Notes: generated by a model not told the origin, from the sequence alone. DNA of 56,569 nt from an uncultured Bacteroidales bacterium (GCA_937892025.1 CALAVA010000029.1:1-56569); one strand, 5' to 3'; positions 3,441 through 56,512 are shown, counted from the stretch's first letter. A program made the numbers and translations.

Positions 3441-4124
3441 ATGAGTTTAAGACATTACGATAGTATACCAAGAGAACAGGACTATGGTGCGTTGAATGGC
3501 GAAATGGTTTTTGGCTTCAATAAACTTGATGGCCAAAATTTCTGTGTCCAATATAAGCCAAAGCATAAAATATGGGGTCCTTGTGGCTCACGTACAAGAA
3601 CCGTTGATGAAAACGATGAGCAATTTGGCGAAACTGTAAAGTACTTTAACAATTCAAAGTATAAGAACATTTTAGAGGAAATTGTTGCGAACAACAGAGG
3701 AAAGAAACAAATCTTCAATGGCGTTGAAGAAATGACTTTTTATTTTGAATGGTTTGGAGAAAATTCATTTGCAGGAAAGCATCAAGAAGGTGATGAAATG
3801 CACTTGGCTCTTATTGACGTGTTTATGAAAAAACGTGGATATATGGAACCAAAAGACTTTGTGGACTTGTTCTATGAAAGTGGCATTGTTTTACCAGATT
3901 TGGTCTATAATGGTCCGTTGAACGCTGAGATTATTGATAAAATTAAGAATAACGATTGGACCCAAGAAGGCTGTGAGTTTCCTTATGTAAAGGAAGGTGT
4001 TGTATTCAAACGTTCAACATTACTTCCAGGTCAGCGTAGACCTTCAGTTAAGGTTAAGACAAAATGGTGGCTGAATAAGCTATATTCAATGTATAGTGAA
4101 GAAGAATGCAAAATTTTGGAATAA
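3441..4124 (+). CDS. ATP-dependent RNA ligase (minimal nucleotidyltransferase domain)
   Basis: Ligase motifs I 'NKLDGQN', III 'FYFEWFGE', IV 'EGVVFK' and V 'KVKTKWW' in canonical order. Confidence 0.7.
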   Translation: MSLRHYDSIPREQDYGALNGEMVFGFNKLDGQNFCVQYKPKHKIWGPCGSRTRTVDENDEQFGETVKYFNNSKYKNILEEIVANNRGKKQIFNGVEEMTFYFEWFGENSFAGKHQEGDEMHLALIDVFMKKRGYMEPKDFVDLFYESGIVLPDLVYNGPLNAEIIDKIKNNDWTQEGCEFPYVKEGVVFKRSTLLPGQRRPSVKVKTKWWLNKLYSMYSEEECKILE

Positions 4125-20928: not shown

Positions 20929-22578
20929 ATGACAAACATGAGTAACGGTTTTATTAAAGCCAACACGATTGGCGCAGGCGCAAATGGCGCATGTACCGAG
21001 AACGGTGCAATTTCTTATGCAACAATTGGCACAGCATTGCTTGACCAATTTGGCAAGGCGGGCTCTTTCCGTGGTAGGGACATCATGGATGTTTGGGCAG
21101 ACCAAGCAAAGTTGTGGTCTGAGGACCCTGAGAACGCATTGAAGTTTCCTTTCTATATTAGGATGATTACACGTCAGTCTAACATCTTGAATGGTGAGAG
21201 AACTGAAAAGGTTCAAAAGGGTCAAGGCAACCGTGACGAGTCTTTCAAGAGACTTCTTTGGATTGCCAAGTATCACCCAGATGAGTTTTACCGCAACCTT
21301 TGGTTGCTTCCTATCGTGGGCTCATGGAAGGATTTGTGGGTGCTTCTTTCATTTGAGGGCGCTGAAGAATACTTGAAGGCTGAAAAATTCTTCGAGGTTA
21401 TGGCTGAGGGTATTAGTGACCCTAATCACAAGGACCTTGTGAAAAAGTATATGCCTCGTATTCGTTCTGACAAGAAGTGTACAACTTCTTGGGCAAAGTC
21501 TACCAATGCAATGGCTAAGTTGTTTGCCAAGACTGCTGGTTGGTCTTATAAGGAGTATCGTGAGTTCAAGGCTACTGGCGTTGCTCATAAGTTCCAAACT
21601 TACATTTGCAAGGGTCTTTACAGTAGCATTGATTGGAAGACAATCCCTGGCAAGGCTTTGCTTAATTTGGTTAGCGGTAAGTTTTTGAAGGCACATAACC
21701 TTGAGAACAGCTACATTGAGTGGTTGAAGACTCAACCTGTCGCTAAGTTCAATGGCTATGTTTATGAACTTGGCCGTAAACTTAAGGATTGCAGATTCAA
21801 TCCTACATTGGCAACTAAGATTACCATTGATAAGCAGTTCGATGGTTTGATTCAAACGGCTTCAAAGAACGATGGAGCCATCCAAGGTAATGTTCTTTGC
21901 GCACTTGACACATCAGGTTCTATGACCTCATTGGTTGATGTCAAGAACAACATTTCAGCATACGATGTATGCGTTTCACTTGGTGTCTACTTTAGTGAGT
22001 TGAACCAAGGTGCGTTCCACAATGTGGTCGCTATGTTCGACAGTACGTCAACATTGAAGACGCTTTCGGGTACTTTCACTGATAAGTACACACAAATCGC
22101 AAGAGGTACAACCGCTTGGGGCTCTACCAATTTCATGTCAATTATAGATTTAATTGTTAATACACGTAAGACTCGTAAGGACATTCCTCTTGAAGACTTC
22201 CCTAAGACACTGCTTGTTGTCAGCGATATGCAGTTCAACCCTTCTAACGGTTGGGGTGGCGACACTTCGGCCCAAGAGAGAACGAACTACGAGGAGGCTA
22301 TGAGAAGCCTCCGTACCGTATTTCCTGAAGAGTTCGTAAAGGACTTCAAGATTATTTGGTGGTATTGCAGCAATGCAAGAACTACTGACTTCCCATCAAC
22401 AATGGAAGATGGTGGTACGTACATGCTTTCAGGTTTTGATGGCGCAGTTGTAAGCTTCTTGCTTTCTGGTGATATGCCTGTCAAGGTTGACGAGAATGAT
22501 AACACTGTTCAGCCTTCAATGGAAGACATTGTTAAATCTGCACTTAGTCAAGAGGTTCTTGCTCTTATTAAGAGATAA
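20929..22578 (+). CDS. DUF2828-like vWA (MIDAS) protein
   Basis: N-terminal 'TENGAISYATIGTALLDQFGKAGSFRG', 'KFPFYIRMITR' and the MIDAS motif 'LDTSGSM'. Visibly higher G+C and C/G-ending codons than its neighbours. Confidence 0.7.
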   Translation: MTNMSNGFIKANTIGAGANGACTENGAISYATIGTALLDQFGKAGSFRGRDIMDVWADQAKLWSEDPENALKFPFYIRMITRQSNILNGERTEKVQKGQGNRDESFKRLLWIAKYHPDEFYRNLWLLPIVGSWKDLWVLLSFEGAEEYLKAEKFFEVMAEGISDPNHKDLVKKYMPRIRSDKKCTTSWAKSTNAMAKLFAKTAGWSYKEYREFKATGVAHKFQTYICKGLYSSIDWKTIPGKALLNLVSGKFLKAHNLENSYIEWLKTQPVAKFNGYVYELGRKLKDCRFNPTLATKITIDKQFDGLIQTASKNDGAIQGNVLCALDTSGSMTSLVDVKNNISAYDVCVSLGVYFSELNQGAFHNVVAMFDSTSTLKTLSGTFTDKYTQIARGTTAWGSTNFMSIIDLIVNTRKTRKDIPLEDFPKTLLVVSDMQFNPSNGWGGDTSAQERTNYEEAMRSLRTVFPEEFVKDFKIIWWYCSNARTTDFPSTMEDGGTYMLSGFDGAVVSFLLSGDMPVKVDENDNTVQPSMEDIVKSALSQEVLALIKR

Positions 22579-22749: not shown

Positions 22750-23433
22750 ATGGGCACTAAGATAAAAACGTTTTTTTGTGCAGATTTACATTTTGGGCAT
22801 CAGACAATTTTGTATCATCATCCAAGCAGGCGTGATGAGTGTGGAGTGACATTGGAAGAGTTGCAGAAAGATAAGAATGCTGCTATTGAAAAGCATGATG
22901 AATGGCTTATTAATTTATGGAATAGTACTATAAATAAAGAAGACCATGTGTACATTATTGGCGATTTTTGTCTTGGTAACAAAGAGTGTACAGAGCATAT
23001 TCTTCAAAGATTGAAAGGTAAAAAATTTCTTGTTAGAGGTAATCACGATAGAAGTTGTAACGGCCTTGAAAGATATTTTGAGTGGGTTGGTGATATTAAA
23101 GAGGTGAAATTCACACACAATCAATATGATTTTATTGACCCAGAAGAAACTTTTTGTGTTGAATTATGCCATTATCCTTTGTTTACTTGGAATAGGAGAA
23201 CACATGGCACTGTTCATATCCATGGCCATTGTCATGGTAGCATTGATTACGTTAATATACTTTCAAAAGAATTAAGGGCTGATGTCGGATTAGATGGTAC
23301 TTTAAGTAATTACAAAATTGTTGATTTAGAAACTGTTTACAATTATTTTGTTAAAATTCGTAATAATGCTGGAATTAACAAGTTTGCTGATTATCAAGAA
23401 TGGCTTATGGAACAGCAAGGCTTTAGAATGTAA
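22750..23433 (+). CDS. Calcineurin-like metallophosphoesterase
   Basis: 'DLHFGH', 'IIGDF', 'RGNHD' and 'HGHCHG' in canonical order. Confidence 0.8.
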   Translation: MGTKIKTFFCADLHFGHQTILYHHPSRRDECGVTLEELQKDKNAAIEKHDEWLINLWNSTINKEDHVYIIGDFCLGNKECTEHILQRLKGKKFLVRGNHDRSCNGLERYFEWVGDIKEVKFTHNQYDFIDPEETFCVELCHYPLFTWNRRTHGTVHIHGHCHGSIDYVNILSKELRADVGLDGTLSNYKIVDLETVYNYFVKIRNNAGINKFADYQEWLMEQQGFRM

Positions 23434-26366: not shown

Positions 26367-26393
26367 AGGCACTAATTGATAGTGCCTTTTTTT
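26367..26393 (+). terminator. Rho-independent terminator
   Basis: AGGCACTA-ATTGA-TAGTGCCT followed by T7. Confidence 0.8.
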
Positions 26394-26492
26394 GTTTTAT
26401 AAAGTTCAACAAATTCTAAATACTTTTCATAATGTTTTCTTTTTGTTTTACTGGAAGAATTTGAAAGGAATTTTTTTATTAAAATTTGTTTT

Positions 26493-26514
26493 TTTGGCAC
26501 AGTTTTTGTATATT
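26493..26514 (+). promoter_or_regulatory. -24/-12-like motif
   Basis: TTTGGCAC-AGTTT-TTGTATATT, about 40 nt upstream of ATG 26557. Confidence 0.55.
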
Positions 26515-26556
26515 CATAATATTGAAAAGAATTTTAGTAATTTAATAGGTTATTAT

Positions 26557-27699
26557 ATGGGAAACGAAGTTAGAGTAAAAGATGGCGTTCCTTATCTTGT
26601 AGAACCAAGTGAAGCCGAAAAAATCAACAGAAGAGTTTCCGAAATTAATTTTGAACTGAAATATGCAGGACAACTGATTGGAAGCGATTTGAAACAAGAA
26701 ATAAATAATTTCAGACATCAAGGTACGACTTGTTCTCCAATTTATCAGAGGTATGGCATAGTTTTTGATAAAATACTTAAAAATTGTAATAATATGAAAA
26801 AGACACAAACTTACACAAAAATTAACACATTGTATTGCAGATACAAAAACTTAAACAAAATTAAACTCCCTAATCCTGATTGGAAATTTTTTCAAAACAA
26901 GATTATTCTTGGTCAGTTTTCTGATGATTATATGGATTATATAAAAAATTTGAAGTTTGATTGCTTTTCAAAAATTGATGGAACAAATTCTAAGATTGTC
27001 TATTTTCCTTCAACAAATGTATGTTTTTGCGGAGGTAAAACCGATAATGCCGATATTATTCACACAGGCCAAAAGGAATATTTGGATAATTTAATTGAAA
27101 GAATTAAGCCTATTCTTGCAGAGATGTTTCCTCCTGAGAGTGCAAGGTTTATTCCAAAGATGAATGACAAAAATCAGATAGAATACCATAGTATTACCAC
27201 TAATGAAATTTTAATTCCTGACCATGAAAGAAATTATGCTGTAAATGTTGAAGAGGCTCCTGTATACATTTACGGTGAATTTTTCGGCAAGAAAATTCAG
27301 GCAGGCGGAAATTATGACAAAGATAATAATCGTTTTTCAATCTTTGATATCTGTGTACAAGGATGGTGGATTCCTATTGATATGCTGAATGAATATGCTG
27401 AAAAACTTGGAATCGATGTTGTTCCTTATCTTGGGCAAATGACAATCCATGAAGCTGAGGAAATGGTAAAAAGTGGATTTAAAACTCATGTCCCTAATGT
27501 AACTAATCCTGATTATCTTGAAGAAGGAATTGTTGCAAGACCTGTTATTCCAATTAAGGACCCAAGAGGTAAAAGAATTATTGTTAAAATTAAAACTTGT
27601 GACTATAACGAATTGACTTCTGCAATTAATAAAGTCGGAATTGAAGAATATGAAAAATTTAATAAATGGTATTTTGAAAATAAAATTGATGAAATTTAA
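26557..27699 (+). CDS. ATP-dependent RNA ligase
   Basis: Motifs I 'SKIDGTN', III 'IYGEFFG', IV 'EGIVARP' and V 'IIVKIKT'. The ORF-track start 26392 would read through the terminator and promoter, so ATG 26557 is used. Confidence 0.7.
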   Translation: MGNEVRVKDGVPYLVEPSEAEKINRRVSEINFELKYAGQLIGSDLKQEINNFRHQGTTCSPIYQRYGIVFDKILKNCNNMKKTQTYTKINTLYCRYKNLNKIKLPNPDWKFFQNKIILGQFSDDYMDYIKNLKFDCFSKIDGTNSKIVYFPSTNVCFCGGKTDNADIIHTGQKEYLDNLIERIKPILAEMFPPESARFIPKMNDKNQIEYHSITTNEILIPDHERNYAVNVEEAPVYIYGEFFGKKIQAGGNYDKDNNRFSIFDICVQGWWIPIDMLNEYAEKLGIDVVPYLGQMTIHEAEEMVKSGFKTHVPNVTNPDYLEEGIVARPVIPIKDPRGKRIIVKIKTCDYNELTSAINKVGIEEYEKFNKWYFENKIDEI

Positions 27700-27710
27700 A
27701 CTTTTTAAAA

Positions 27711-29213
27711 ATGGCTAAAAGATTTGTATTGACAAAGGATGCCAATCCTAACTATTTGGCTACAATTTGCAAAATTGGAGAAACTTTTCCAATTGAAGGT
27801 GCCGACAAACTTGTAAAGACCGTAGTAAACGGTTATGACATTGTTATTGGTAAGGACCACAAGGAGGGAGACATTGTTGTCTATTTCCCTGTAGAGTGTG
27901 CTATTAGCCAAATGTACTTGTCAACAAACAACCTATTTGAGCGTTCAGAATTTGAAAGAAACGCCAATGCCGATTCTGTTAAAGAGTATCTTGTTGAACT
28001 TGAAAACGCTGAAAATGAGAACGACACGGAAAAGGCTGAGGAAATTTCGGCTAAGATTAAGTCAATGTGTGGATTTTTCAACAAGAACGGACGTGTACGT
28101 ATCTTGAAACTTCGTGGGCAATATTCTCAAGGATTCATTGCAGGTGTTGATTCTCTTGTTAATTATGATTCAACCTTGAAAGATACTAATTGGGAATCTC
28201 TTGTTGGTACTCAATTCAACTATATTGATGACAAAGAGTTTTGCTATAAATATATTCCGCCCATTAGGGGCCATTGCAATAGCAACAATGGTAATCAGGG
28301 TCAGTCTATATGGAAAAAGAGAATGAAAAATCTGAAGAAATTCAACAGACTTGTTGATGGGCAGTTCGCATATCATTATGATACAAAGCAGCTTGGTGAA
28401 CATATTAATGAGTTAAATCCAAATGATAATGTATCTATTACTGTTAAAGTTCATGGTACTTCTATAATTATGTCAAACATTCTTGTTAACAAGAAACTTA
28501 CTACTTGGGAAAAAATTAAGAAGTTCTTTGGTGTTAAGGTTCCAATGGTAGAATACGGAAATGTTTACTCTTCAAGAGGTGTAATCAAGAATAAGTATAT
28601 CAACCAAGGAGTTACTTCAGGATACTACGGATGCGATATTTACGGATGTGTAAACCGTGATTTTTCGCCTTATATTGATAAGGGTATGACTGTCTATGGT
28701 GAAGTTGTTGGGTATCTTGAAAACTCAACTTCAATGATTCAGAAGCAGCATGACTATGGGTGTAAGACTGGCCATTGGAAGTTTATGCCATATAGAATCA
28801 CTTCAACCGATGAGAATGGTAATCATAAAGAATGGCCTATCAAGCAGGTTGACGAATGGACGCATAAACTTGTTGAACTTCATCCTGAACTTGCTGATAA
28901 AACAATGTTCTTGAATTTTGTTTATTATGGAAGATTTGGTGATATGTATACAGATATTCCTGAGGATGAAAATTGGAACAAAAACATTCTTGCAAGAATG
29001 AAATCTGACAGAAAACTCATTCTTATGGAAGAAGATGAACCTATGTGCAAGAATAAGGTTCCTCGTGAGGGGGTTGTTGTTAGAATTGTTGGCGATAACT
29101 TTGCAAGAGCATGGAAATTAAAAAGTTTAAGACATTTTGACCGAGAAGCTAAACAGCATGATAATGGAGAGGTAGATATGGAAGAAATGGCTTCCTCAGA
29201 AGAAATTTCTTAA
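27711..29213 (+). CDS. RNA ligase with N-terminal OB-like domain (DraRnl/Rnl5-like architecture)
   Basis: N-terminal 'ATICKIGETFPIEGADKLVKTVVNGYDIVIGKDHKEGDIVVYFP', then motifs I 'VKVHGTS', III 'VYGEVVG', IV 'EGVVVR' and V 'AWKLKS'. Confidence 0.7.
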   Translation: MAKRFVLTKDANPNYLATICKIGETFPIEGADKLVKTVVNGYDIVIGKDHKEGDIVVYFPVECAISQMYLSTNNLFERSEFERNANADSVKEYLVELENAENENDTEKAEEISAKIKSMCGFFNKNGRVRILKLRGQYSQGFIAGVDSLVNYDSTLKDTNWESLVGTQFNYIDDKEFCYKYIPPIRGHCNSNNGNQGQSIWKKRMKNLKKFNRLVDGQFAYHYDTKQLGEHINELNPNDNVSITVKVHGTSIIMSNILVNKKLTTWEKIKKFFGVKVPMVEYGNVYSSRGVIKNKYINQGVTSGYYGCDIYGCVNRDFSPYIDKGMTVYGEVVGYLENSTSMIQKQHDYGCKTGHWKFMPYRITSTDENGNHKEWPIKQVDEWTHKLVELHPELADKTMFLNFVYYGRFGDMYTDIPEDENWNKNILARMKSDRKLILMEEDEPMCKNKVPREGVVVRIVGDNFARAWKLKSLRHFDREAKQHDNGEVDMEEMASSEEIS

Positions 29214-52525: not shown

Positions 52526-52627
52526 AATTTATTTGGCATCACCTGTGCTGAGGCTTGGAGATAGCACTTTCTACTATTTTTTTGTGATTGCATGAATAGT
52601 AATAATTGCTGTACGCTTTCTTCAGAG

Positions 52628-52699
52628 TAGCGGGGGGAGGACTCGAACCTCCGACTTCCAGGTTATGGGCCTGACGAGCTGCCTCTGCTCTACCCCGCA
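52628..52699 (-). tRNA. tRNA-Met (anticodon CAU) with initiator-like features
   Basis: 72-nt cloverleaf with anticodon loop CCCATAA and T arm GGAGG-TTCGAGT-CCTCC. It has a 1:72 U-U mismatch and A11:U24 (initiator-like) but only two G:C pairs at the base of the anticodon stem. tRNA-Ile2 (lysidine) cannot be excluded. Confidence 0.8.
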
Positions 52700-52841
52700 T
52701 CAGTTATCAAAGAACAAAAGTTATCAGAAAACATTTTATGACAAACACCATTGTTTTTTAATTAGTTGCTGTTAGTTTTCTTTTTATGTTATAAATATAC
52801 AAACTAATTTTAAAAAAACCAAATTTTTTTGTATTTTTTTT

Positions 52842-52918
52842 GTCCTCCCCATGGGCTCTAACCACGAACTGTATGGATATAAGCCATATGCTCTAACCAA
52901 TTGAGACTTAGAAGAGGA
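52842..52918 (-). pseudogene. Aberrant tRNA-like element related to tRNA-Ile(UAU)
   Basis: Acceptor TCCTCTT/GGGAGGA, anticodon arm TATGG-CTTATAT-CCATA and T arm CGTGG-TTAGAGC-CCATG. There are 5 nt instead of 2 between the acceptor and D stems, and the T loop is non-canonical. Confidence 0.4.
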
Positions 52919-52926
52919 TTTTAATT

Positions 52927-53328
52927 TTAATTCATATAGAATCCAATCTTTCTATTAAATGGTGTATTACCATCGTAGAAGTCCTTGTAAGCGAATTCAT
53001 ATATATGGCTTCCACTATTTTGCTTGGCTATTACTGTGATAGTATCCTTATCAACGGCCATCATATAGATATTCACGCCACTAAGAGAAATAGAGTCATT
53101 AATCTTTTCCATTGTAAAACAGGAACTTCCATCACCAAGATTAATATGGTATGTGCTGTCATTCAGTCTGTCAACAGCAATGATTGATTCTTGTTCCCAT
53201 TGTTCCTTCCATCTGCTTTCAATTATGGAATCTTTCACGACAATGTATAAAAGAAATCCAACACAAGCAATTCCAATTATAATTAAAATAAGCAATCCTT
53301 TTGATAATGAGTTTCTGTTTTCTTCCAT
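52927..53328 (-). CDS. Membrane-anchored hypothetical protein
   Basis: N-terminal TM 'GLLILIIIGIACVGFLLYIVV'; 133 aa. Confidence 0.6.
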   Translation of the reverse strand: MEENRNSLSKGLLILIIIGIACVGFLLYIVVKDSIIESRWKEQWEQESIIAVDRLNDSTYHINLGDGSSCFTMEKINDSISLSGVNIYMMAVDKDTITVIAKQNSGSHIYEFAYKDFYDGNTPFNRKIGFYMN

Positions 53329-53360
53329 TGTTTAAAGTTTTATAATTTCAAATTTTAATT

Positions 53361-53380
53361 ATACAATAATTATGCCAAAG
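53361..53380 (-). promoter_or_regulatory. -24/-12-like motif
   Basis: Minus sense: CTTTGGCAT-AATTA-TTGTAT, 33 nt upstream of ATG 53328. Confidence 0.55.
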
Positions 53381-53386
53381 TTTTAA

Positions 53387-53408
53387 ATATGTACGCAATT
53401 GCGTATAT
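53387..53408. promoter_or_regulatory. Palindromic operator/UAS candidate
   Basis: ATATGTACGCA-AT-TGCGTATAT, about 23 bp upstream of the GG of the 53361 motif. Confidence 0.5.
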
Positions 53409-53414
53409 TACTTG

Positions 53415-53753
53415 TAGCGGTGGCCGGACTCGAACCGGCACGGGCGCAATGCCCAGAAGATTTTCTTACTACACTTGCTTTTACACAAGCCATCTACTTG
53501 AGATGTTGTAGTCTGGACTATTTCTTCACCATGCAGTGATGTTTAGGTGTCTCGTATATAGTCTCTACGCCATTTTTATTAGAGAGCCATCGCCAAAGAA
53601 TGTGTCACCACATTCGAGGTTTCTGTTTGTTAGCGAGATTCTACATCCCAATATTAATTATCGTTTTCTCCTTTCGGAAAGGATGCACTCTTATTGCGAC
53701 CTTATTGGTCAACTTTCAAAGTCTGCCGTGTCTACCAATTCCACCACACCGCC
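53415..53753 (-). tRNA. tRNA-Leu (anticodon UAA) interrupted by a group-I-like intron
   Basis: The 5' exon (53753-53719, GGCGGTGTGGTGGAATTGGTAGACACGGCAGACTT) and 3' exon (53464-53415) join into an 85-nt class II tRNA. It has anticodon loop CTT|AAAA, a long variable arm and T arm GCCGG-TTCGAGT-CCGGC. Confidence 0.75.
53465..53718 (-). ncRNA. Group I-like intron (254 nt, no ORF) in the tRNA-Leu anticodon loop
   Basis: Inserted after U34 and ends in G. 'GUAGAGACUA' and 'AAGAAAUAGUCC' resemble the conserved J6/7-P7 and J8/7-P7' elements (GACUA/UAGUC pairing). There is also a GNRA-capped hairpin, GAAUGUG-GUGA-CACAUUC. Confidence 0.65.
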
Positions 53754-53788
53754 ATTATTTCAAAGAACAAATATGTACGCATTACTTG

Positions 53789-53863
53789 TGGGAACAGTAG
53801 GATTCGAACCTACGACCCTCTCGGTGTAAACGAGATGCGCTAAACCAACTACGCTATGCTCCC
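53789..53863 (-). tRNA. tRNA-Val (anticodon UAC)
   Basis: 75-nt cloverleaf with acceptor GGGAGCA/TGTTCCC, anticodon loop TTTACAC and T arm GTAGG-TTCGAAT-CCTAC. Confidence 0.85.
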
Positions 53864-53915
53864 AAATCATAGAGATAGATGTCTTGCCAAGTCGTTGACT
53901 TACCTCTACTACAAT

Positions 53916-53942
53916 ATTATTATTATTATTATTATTATTATT
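53916..53942 (-). repeat. (ATT)9 microsatellite, read as (AAU)9 in transcript sense
   Basis: Nine perfect units starting 2 nt downstream of the tRNA-Ile 3' end. Confidence 0.95.
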
Positions 53943-53944
53943 TG

Positions 53945-54018
53945 TCCTCTGGGATGGACTTGAACCACCGACCTTGAAGGTATAAGCTTCCTGCGCTAAC
54001 CAACTGCGCCACCAGAGG
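53945..54018 (-). tRNA. tRNA-Ile (anticodon UAU)
   Basis: 74-nt cloverleaf with acceptor CCTCTGG/CCAGAGG, D arm GCGC-AGTTGGTTA-GCGC, anticodon loop CTTATAC and T arm GGTGG-TTCAAGT-CCATC. Confidence 0.8.
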
Positions 54019-54040
54019 ATGTGTCTTGTAATATATAGAT

Positions 54041-54067
54041 TGCTCTAACCAACTGTGCTACGGGACC
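54041..54067 (-). pseudogene. tRNA 5' fragment (acceptor strand plus D arm only)
   Basis: GGTCCCG-TA-GCAC-AGTTGGTTA-GAGC-A has no matching anticodon or T arm and no 3' acceptor strand downstream. Confidence 0.5.
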
Positions 54068-54138
54068 TTAATAGGTTTTTCGTGATACGGTATCCTAAAA
54101 CAGTTTCGATGTATCACACAAGACCAACCTATAGGTTG

Positions 54139-54211
54139 AGCAGCATAAGGGAATCGAACCCTCACCCCCAGCTTGGAAGGCTGGTATACTAAACCGTTAT
54201 ACGAATGCTGC
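54139..54211 (-). tRNA. tRNA-Gly (anticodon UCC)
   Basis: 73-nt cloverleaf with acceptor GCAGCAT/ATGCTGC, anticodon arm CCAGC-CTTCCAA-GCTGG and T arm GAGGG-TTCGATT-CCCTT. Confidence 0.85.
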
Positions 54212-56480: not shown

Positions 56481-56512
56481 AGTGTTATGCTTTTATTGGT
56501 TATACATTAAAA

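Follow-up and report, generated by a model that had tools for sequence, protein, structure and literature searches.

Group I introns in tRNA-Leu(UAA) genes are a well-known kind of element. The one in Nostoc lies at the site CUU/a...g/AAAA and is classed as Leu.3Ug in a survey of bacterial genomes only, in which 5292 group-I-split tRNA genes were mapped (Williams, bioRxiv 10.1101/2020.01.27.920355). For phages, a 2014 review stated that every intron then known interrupted a protein-coding gene, although tRNA genes are numerous in phages (PMC3984707). In 2019, Devoto et al. described "enigmatic" introns in tRNA genes of Lak phages, stated that no earlier case was on record for phages, tried Rfam and gave no class (PMC6784885); the observation was repeated in a 2026 survey of jumbo phages (PMC13037316). 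For crAss-like and Jug phages, numerous group I introns in protein genes have been reported, without a link to tRNA genes (PMC7886860, PMC12880540); Jug genomes carry about 18.5 small group I introns (~206 nt) each, and the main text of the Jug paper makes no mention of tRNA (PMC12880540). In the literature within our reach, to which subscription journals did not belong, no paper was found that classes a phage tRNA intron as group I. Here we analyzed a 56,569-nt stretch of DNA (the window) from an uncultured Bacteroidales bacterium (GCA_937892025.1 CALAVA010000029.1:1-56569), which contains a phage tRNA-Leu(UAA) gene interrupted on the minus strand by 254 nt (53718-53465). The insert, located between U34 and A35, is very probably a group I intron of the type known from bacterial tRNAs (IC3-like), a reading carried by its exact boundaries, its homology to a large family, and the covariation of its helices and of P1.

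The insert shares with the classical tRNA-Leu(UAA) intron the gene, the U34/A35 site, the U at -1, the final G, a length of about 250 nt, the lack of an open reading frame (ORF), and P7 and J8/7 strings of the group I consensus. Unlike the classical intron, it resides in a phage genome, has a P4 of two base pairs, no P6a, an extra hairpin in the P1 loop and a three-way P2, and is invisible to the Rfam model RF00028. Common descent was shown with Bacteroidales copies only, and the likeness to the cyanobacterial intron is drawn from published descriptions. The tRNA-Ile ribozyme of Azoarcus is a compact IC3 intron in which a GNRA loop on P2 faces an 11-nt receptor in P8 and which has the core string GUAGAGACUA. 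The window copy likewise has a GAAA loop in its P2 domain and CCUAAA/CAUGG in P8, although the Azoarcus intron sits in a different tRNA and at a different site of the anticodon loop. The introns of phage protein genes (T4 td and nrdB; crAss-like and Jug phages) belong to the same ribozyme class, but they interrupt ORFs and often occur with or near homing endonucleases. In the Lak megaphages, tRNA genes also carry conserved inserts, and Lak-B and Lak-C have a homologue of the window intron in tRNA-Leu(UAA); the published Lak cases are tRNA-Tyr, tRNA-Thr and others, and tRNA-Leu is not among the isotypes named in the main text (Tyr, Thr; PMC6784885). The element therefore belongs to a well-known kind, the Leu(UAA) group I intron, and it is of interest for its phage tRNA host, the size and spread of its family, and the blind spot of annotation that it reveals.

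The interrupted gene is made up of three parts:

53719-53753, minus strand: 5' exon of tRNA-Leu(UAA), with the 5' strand of the acceptor stem, the D arm, the 5' strand of the anticodon stem and C32 U33 U34, U34 being the -1 nucleotide
53465-53718, minus strand: putative 254-nt group I intron without ORF, missing from a syntenic relative, matched by the family profile at E 4.7e-47 and built of covarying helices
53415-53464, minus strand: 3' exon, with A35 A36 A37 A38, the 3' strand of the anticodon stem, the long variable arm, the T arm, the 3' strand of the acceptor stem and the discriminator A

Joining the 5' exon (53753-53719, minus strand, GGCGGTGTGGTGGAATTGGTAGACACGGCAGACTT) to the 3' exon (53464-53415, minus strand, AAAATCTTCTGGGCATTGCGCCCGTGCCGGTTCGAGTCCGGCCACCGCTA) gives a canonical class II tRNA-Leu(taa) in ARAGORN, with a 7-bp acceptor stem including a G1.U72 wobble, a 3-bp D stem, the anticodon loop CUUAAAA, a long variable hairpin, the T loop TTCGAGT and A as discriminator; CCA is not encoded in the 3' exon. 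An insertion between U34 and A35 that gives CUU-AAAA is that of class Leu.3Ug, and the identity with the classical cyanobacterial and plastid site, which a preliminary description made from the window sequence alone had proposed, agrees with the CUU/a...g/AAAA of Nostoc (Williams, bioRxiv 10.1101/2020.01.27.920355). The insert is preceded by U, ends in G and contains GUAGAGACUA ... AAGAAAUAGUCC, CACC..GGUG, UCUCG/CGAGA and a 7-bp hairpin capped by GUGA, so that every sequence feature listed in that description was found in place; its longest sense-strand ORF has 28 amino acids.

The ends of the insert were fixed by an allele without it. A scan of IMG/VR for the 5' exon returned nine phage contigs in which it runs straight into AAAATC, and 27 nt of the window's 5' exon are identical to these intronless alleles. 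One of the contigs (L147, IMGVR_UViG_3300028914_000061, 148 kb) is related to the window and syntenic with it, with colinear blastn matches of 67-96% identity over window positions 56505 to 50361 and the same tRNA order (Gly, x, Val, Leu, Met). The match ends at L147 position 4109 (window 53719) and restarts at 4110 (window 53464), and pairwise alignment leaves a single clean gap of 254 columns, exactly 53718-53465, with the break at CTT|AAAA. This establishes the insert as a discrete element whose ends are those proposed, present in one phage and absent from a related one, and bears out the earlier claims of a split tRNA-Leu(UAA) with its junction at U34/A35 and of a 254-nt insert ending in G after a 5' exon ending in U. 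Other placements were considered and rejected. The intron mode of ARAGORN on the raw locus found the right outer ends but set the junction to give Ser(tga), i(40,255), which the intronless allele contradicts. Brute-force splicing judged by ARAGORN was too permissive, accepting loops of 6 to 9 nt, and was replaced by an explicit score for a 5-bp stem and a 7-nt loop. On this score alone, a class II "Phe(GAA)" reading of the window ties with CUU|AAAA; it is implausible, and the homologues, P1 and the intronless allele decide against it.

The insert belongs to a large family. In a sensitive blastn search of GenBank phages it matched crAss-like cr115_1, IAS virus and the Lak megaphages, which have the 18-mer AAATAGTCCAGACTACAA in common with the window. 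This 18-mer occurs exactly at 49 IMG/VR loci and at 87 loci of a bacterial genome collection, the latter mostly on contigs of Bacteroidales metagenome-assembled genomes and on one complete 3.3-Mb chromosome (OZ007033.1). Among 46 distinct regions (phage and IMG/VR loci, window included), intron-aware ARAGORN placed tRNA genes in 37, nearly all split and spanning the 18-mer. The bacterial loci are mostly tRNA-Leu(UAA) with the 3' border ...G|AAAATCC. Junctions were mapped by a rule whose only requirements were U33, a purine at 37 and an anticodon arm with a 5-bp stem and a 7-nt loop; neither U-1 nor a final G was demanded. Spliced anticodons were Leu(UAA) (63 copies), UCU (4 copies), Lys(UUU) (3 copies) and Ile(UAU) (1 copy) at site 34/35, and CUA (14 copies) at site 35/36. 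Nearly all mapped copies have U before the insert and G at its end, the final base being G in all but 2. A profile hidden Markov model built from the 42 other copies, with the window excluded, gave a single nhmmer match in the window, 53644-53465 on the minus strand (E = 4.7e-47), ending on the proposed last base. The nearest relatives of the window copy are all from phages (L008, tRNA-Leu, 87.6% identity; L018, tRNA-Lys(UUU), 84.5%; L015, 84.0%), and Bacteroidales chromosomal copies reach 74-79% identity over 204 well-aligned columns. The chromosomal tRNA-Leu(UAA) introns (Cryptobacteroides, Prevotellaceae, Paludibacteraceae and others) have the same site, the guide GAGUGC and the same P7/P9 18-mer, but in contrast to the window copy they retain P6a, their P2 is simple and capped by GAAA, and many carry longer inserts in P9a or P8. 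On this sequence comparison, the family is shared by Bacteroidales chromosomes and their phages, and it is common in phages of the gut and of bioreactors as well as in these hosts. The preliminary description had called group I introns in phage tRNA genes at least uncommon; this is true of the literature, but not of sequence collections, where one 18-mer retrieves 49 IMG/VR loci.

The mapped elements of the window copy, all on the minus strand, are as follows:

53718-53722, minus strand: 5' strand of P1 (A31 C32 U33 U34 | U+1), pairing with AGAGU; the 5' splice site would lie after 53719, with U-1 opposite an invariant G
53698-53710, minus strand: extra hairpin GACC-AAUAA-GGUC in the P1 loop, variable in length between copies; elsewhere in the family, hairpins that differ in sequence are found at this position
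53687-53691, minus strand: internal guide sequence AGAGU (3' strand of P1); the G at 53690 is an invariant column of alignment A1
53644-53685, minus strand: P2 domain, a three-way junction closed by CAUCC/GGAUG, with a GAAA-capped hairpin (53668-53679) and an AU-rich hairpin (53649-53663)
53634-53638, minus strand: 5' strand of P3, UCUCG; 5/5 pairs changed on both sides, 97.7% of cells paired
53588-53625, minus strand: P4-J4/5-P5 arm, with a 2-bp P4 (CA/UG), a GAAA / CGA internal loop, CC/GG and a 7-bp P5 capped by GUGA
53569-53587, minus strand: shortened P6 (GCU/GGC), without the P6a hairpin of most relatives
53559-53563, minus strand: 5' strand of P7, GACUA, after J6/7 GUAGA; invariant in 43/43 sequences and fitting the RF00028 consensus AGACUA
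53550-53554, minus strand: 3' strand of P3, CGAGA, partner of UCUCG
53527-53549, minus strand: P8 (CACC/GGUG) with CCUAAA / CAUGG, a variant of the 11-nt GAAA-tetraloop receptor
53516-53526, minus strand: J8/7 AAGAAA and 3' strand of P7, UAGUC; 10/11 bases fit the RF00028 consensus AAGAUAUAGUC
53468-53512, minus strand: P9 domain, P9 (ACUAC/GUAGU) enclosing P9a (CAUCU/AGAUG) and P9b (GCUUG/CAAGU), with covariation
53465, minus strand: terminal G (omega G), after which the 3' splice site would lie, a boundary fixed by the intronless allele

Covariation was counted on a MAFFT alignment of 43 distinct copies (A1). Unaided, RNAalifold recovered the exon-exon anticodon stem, P2, P3, P5, P6, P6a, P8, P9a and P9b, with compensatory change in 40/46 of its pairs. 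A full structure was built by hand from these helices plus P1, P4, the P7 pseudoknot and P9. It pairs 89.5% of cells as compared to 72.1% in shuffled alignments, and on each of five measures 0/500 shuffles came up to the real alignment; when the partner strand was slid, only 33-43% remained paired. Both sides have changed in 47/64 pairs, most strongly in P3 (5/5), P5 (7/7) and P9a (5/5); P9b has such changes in 4/5 pairs and P8 in 3/4. The inner pair of P4 covaries as well (AU 25, GC 10, CG 3), as do P6 and P6a across the family. Guide and exon change together: anchored at the splice site, GAGU occurs with ACUU in 29 sequences and GGAG with CUCU in 9, and the G opposite U-1 is invariant in 43/43 sequences. 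An alignment-free search for the guide was noisy, and the aligned invariant G column was used instead. The order of elements (P3 5', P7 5', P3 3', P8, P7 3') is the one required for a pseudoknotted group I core. A core with P3 crossing P7, an omega G and a G.U wobble in P1 are all found. The strings GUAGAGACUAUA and AAGAAAUAGUC of the window correspond to ...CAaAGACUAAA... and ...AAGAUAUAGUC... of the RF00028 consensus in the printed alignment. The P3, P7, P8 and GNRA-hairpin assignments of the preliminary description hold against homologues and covariation, in the case of P7 against complementarity and consensus.

The P2 domain was recovered by single-sequence folding, and its arrangement is common to the window copy and two of its nearest relatives (L008, L018); in other family members P2 is simple, GNRA-capped and covarying. 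For the outer P2 helix, a register based on the window fitted the family poorly (47% paired) and was dropped for that of RNAalifold (columns 86-88 with 124-126), which fitted better. In the P8 receptor, CCUAAG..UAUGG alternates among the copies with CCUAAA..CAUGG, CCUAAG/UAUGG being the canonical 11-nt GAAA receptor. Of 79 columns conserved at >=90%, only 2 differ in the window copy, both in L2 because its P2 is rearranged, and the only pairs of the structure that it lacks are those of the absent P6a and the exon pair 28-42.

Several observations weigh against the group I assignment. RF00028 gave no match for the window copy, whether the locus was searched at E<=10 or the whole window at E<=1, and relatives remain just under its gathering score (threshold 50). 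The P7 strands GACUA/UAGUC are complementary but all 5 pairs are invariant and so provide no covariation, and the 3' strand lies within the 18-mer used for searching; the support for P7 is its complementarity and its match to the consensus. P4 is cut to 2 bp with one covarying pair, P6a is absent in the window copy, the anticodon stem has a C28.U42 mismatch, and the minimum free energy of the single window sequence is not exceptional (z = -1.36). The preliminary description had named the failure of a covariance model to score the insert as an outcome that would speak against an intron, and with RF00028 this outcome formally occurred. Family members do score, however (L030 at 49.1 bits, E 7e-11; L118 at 37.2 bits; L070 at 31 bits, E to 1.5e-4), and the window joins the family at E 4.7e-47, because of which the miss is a limit of sensitivity and not counter-evidence. 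The gathering threshold is moreover that of a database and not a biochemical definition, and the Rfam version used by Williams had 12 seed sequences, none of them bacterial (bioRxiv 10.1101/2020.01.27.920355). The scored members belong to another sub-family, with the P3-to-P4 segment …CUAAUUC… as compared to …CUAACAAAC… in that of the window, where P4 has only two pairs (C-N/N'-G, with N/N' covarying); the window copy additionally lacks P6a and has an enlarged P2. The tRNA tools were similarly affected. Default ARAGORN on the unjoined locus called five other tRNAs in the window but not tRNA-Leu, the Rfam tRNA model missed the unjoined gene and gave 14 bits to its 3' half alone, and tRNAscan-SE 2.0 is by its own statement not designed for detecting such introns.

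Might the insert be an intron by descent that no longer splices, with tRNA-Leu(UAA) a pseudogene? We regard this as quite unlikely. The missing P6a, the minimal P4, the lack of an Rfam match and the C28.U42 mismatch speak for it, and the Anabaena intron reportedly needs exon pairing in this stem (title of Zaug et al. 1993, cited in PMC3984707). However, two relatives (L009, L019) also lack P6a, and the same anticodon arm with its C.U mismatch is found in the intronless, presumably working allele of L147; 6/43 family members have a non-pair at this position. Only 2/79 conserved columns differ, all other helices are intact, and the tRNA would read UUA, the commonest Leu codon of the window ORFs (32%). 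Given that other phage tRNAs (Gln-UUG, Ile-UAU, Val-UAC, Gly-UCC) read A-ending codons as well, a working tRNA-Leu(UAA) would be sensible for the phage.

Removal by proteins, through an endonuclease that cuts out the insert and a phage RNA ligase that rejoins the exons, or a strict need of the ribozyme for a protein cofactor, appears very improbable, even though genes for at least three RNA-ligase-like proteins, an RNA-binding protein (PHROG phrog_850) and a phosphatase or phosphoesterase lie in the window. Such a route leaves the complete covarying group I core and the guide sequence unexplained, and the family is also found in bacterial chromosomes without the phage's gene set. The junction lies at 34/35 and not at 37/38, and no bulge-helix-bulge motif was noticed, albeit without a dedicated scan. 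A bulge-helix-bulge tRNA intron, usually short and at 37/38, was set aside in view of this junction, the 254 nt and the group I core, and a group II intron (domain V/VI) because no group II family was among the Rfam matches at E<=10. The window stems from a metagenome assembly and no curated model recognizes the insert, and one might hence think of a chance insertion, another mobile element or an assembly chimera that destroyed the tRNA gene. With precise ends, structure-preserving evolution and the element at the same kind of site in >100 independent contigs from different studies, we consider this extremely improbable.

Splicing of the window copy would follow the two-step, guanosine-initiated pathway that is the standard group I mechanism, applied here to the mapped elements. 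After transcription of the tRNA array from the minus strand, exon ACUU and intron U1 would pair with the guide AGAGU (intron positions 28-32) to form P1, so that U34 would stand in a G.U wobble. The attack after U34 would come from a free guanosine in the P7 pocket; the terminal G254 would then take the place of this guanosine, and the freed 3'-OH of U34 would attack after G254. CUU would thereby be ligated to AAAA, restoring the 7-nt anticodon loop with the junction GACUU-AAAAUC. The predicted ligated-exon junction is ...GGCAGACUU-AAAAUCUUC, and the predicted stretch spanning it is GACTTAAAATCTTC. The 3' exon is probably held by exon-exon pairing in the anticodon stem rather than by P10, no such pairing being evident between the AAUAA that lies 5' of the guide and the AAAAU that begins the 3' exon. 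Given that A31 is common to P1 and the anticodon stem, the precursor would have to switch between the two pairings. Docking of the GAAA loop of the P2 domain on the receptor-like CCUAAA/CAUGG of P8 probably braces the fold. Catalysis, this L2-P8 contact and the holding of the 3' exon are what we infer from the sequence.

Around the interrupted gene lies a tRNA array:

52627-54211, minus strand: tRNA array with Gly(UCC), Ile(UAU), Val(UAC), Leu(UAA) with the putative intron, a weak tRNA-like match and Met(CAU), syntenic in L147

The weak match (52842-52915, minus strand), between the Leu and Met genes, scores 31.7 bits, barely over threshold, and is not called by ARAGORN. A common spacer motif, CAAGUAAU...GCGUACAUAUUU, follows both tRNA-Val (53766-53788) and tRNA-Leu (53383-53414) on the minus strand and is possibly a signal for processing or termination in the array. 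Scans for sigma-70 promoters and terminators around the array were uninformative in this AT-rich DNA. The window as a whole is AT-rich (~31% GC), and its PHROG matches are typical of a large phage: RNA ligases, a phosphatase and a phosphoesterase, an exonuclease, an endonuclease VII/HNH protein, a DNA methyltransferase and a sigma factor. Genes resembling RNA repair functions lie at 3441-4124, 20929-22578, 22750-23433 and 26392-29213, comprising three RNA-ligase-like ORFs, the phosphoesterase and the RNA-binding protein phrog_850, which we take to be possibly Ro-like; in a related locus (L005), a sub-threshold match resembling Y RNA (YrlA) lies among the tRNAs. A phosphatase-like ORF at 112-582 covers only positions 54-203 of a 422-position profile and is directly followed by the endonuclease VII/HNH ORF (676-1182), and this gene may be interrupted by a homing endonuclease. 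Relatives in IMG/VR lie on contigs of up to 361 kb, and one window gene also occurs in a bioreactor metagenome (PRJEB12797). The last 11.5 kb of the window had no megablast match in GenBank phages, and tblastn of its sigma factor against phages gave distant matches only (26-28% identity). A test for stop-codon recoding in the window brought no convincing gain; the standard code fits and was assumed.

Several members of the family are of interest in their own right. About 14 lie in tRNAs with the spliced loop CUCUAAA or CUCUAAC and the anticodon CUA, of the amber-suppressor type, with the intron between U35 and A36 and the guide GGAG (L001, L011, L022, L023, L025-L027, L048, L052, L056 and others). 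The member in cr115_1 (NC_055898, L001:1464-1691) lies upstream of terL in a locus without annotated feature. In the two IMG/VR copies L009 and L019 the intron apparently ends in A (...GUAGUACA|AAC), with U at -1 and a CUA-type loop kept; these introns are either inactive or have an unusual 3' splice site. In IAS virus (NC_049978, L004:998-1512), a gap of about 515 nt between two coding sequences annotated as "DNA primase" contains the core of the tRNA introns (GUAGAGACUAUA, AAAUAGUCCAGACUAC, GCUUGUGUAAAAGCAAGUGUAGUAAG), its P7-P9 segments being almost exactly those of the window, so that a single intron lineage occurs in both protein and tRNA genes of Bacteroidales phages.

The Lak-like contig L007 (IMGVR_UViG_3300013901_000216) has two inserts in tRNA-Leu(UAA), at 1097-1405 and 1421-1768: one of 309 nt in the D loop (GGU|AAAGUG...UUUUUG|AGACAC) and one of 348 nt in the anticodon loop, each following U and ending in G. 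Once both are removed, a canonical tRNA-Leu(taa) results, and the same arrangement is present in Lak-B1 (L003) and Lak-C1 (L002). The D-loop element of Lak-B1 scores 40.5 bits against the Rfam Intron_gpI model (E 3e-8). Neither a pair of group I introns within a single tRNA gene nor a group I intron in a D loop is otherwise known to us. Four contigs of IMG/VR 3300045988 (L016, L020, L043, L046) carry a tRNA-like insert of about 105 nt (ATATGGCGGAATTGGTATACGG...GGGTTCGAATCCC) within P9 of the anticodon-loop intron, which scores 33-34 bits against the Rfam tRNA model in L016 and L046 and is reminiscent of what was described in Lak phages as an "intron that may encode a tRNA".

The window intron and its nearest relatives also bear on how such elements spread. 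The tRNA-Leu(UAA) intron of L008 and the tRNA-Lys(UUU) intron of L018 are 84-88% identical to that of the window, and the three genes share the 5' exon end ACUU. Presence and absence in related phages, together with this 84.5% identical copy in tRNA-Lys(UUU), suggest spread by recombination or reverse splicing, and the Leu and Lys copies fit a transposition guided by the 4-nt guide sequence. No endonuclease gene is present in the window intron, and its mobility is something we infer from these comparisons. The syntenic phage alleles with and without intron and the near-identical Leu and Lys introns would provide a natural system for studying intron spread without an endonuclease.

A phage tRNA intron is now tied to exact ends and, very probably, to the group I class, against the gap left in the literature of 2014 (PMC3984707) and 2019 (PMC6784885). 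Since default ARAGORN and Rfam thresholds miss introns of this family, the tRNA sets of phages are under-counted, including CUA suppressor-like tRNAs that are relevant to calling recoded genomes; such hidden suppressors could alter how recoded phage genomes are read. Compact ORF-less ribozymes of the tRNA type are raw material of circular-RNA engineering, for which the new natural variants may be useful. The suggestion of the preliminary description that splicing would control the supply of tRNA-Leu is speculative. Finally, the intron might not be a neutral passenger but be kept for the benefit of the phage, either as a ribozyme gate that ties the supply of some tRNAs to GTP/Mg2+ status or to the stage of infection, or as a shield of the tRNA gene from recombining with the host copy or being targeted like it. 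We consider such a benefit unlikely; if true, the gated tRNAs would be Leu-UAA here and the CUA suppressor-like ones in crAss-like relatives, where a switch of the genetic code could be timed.

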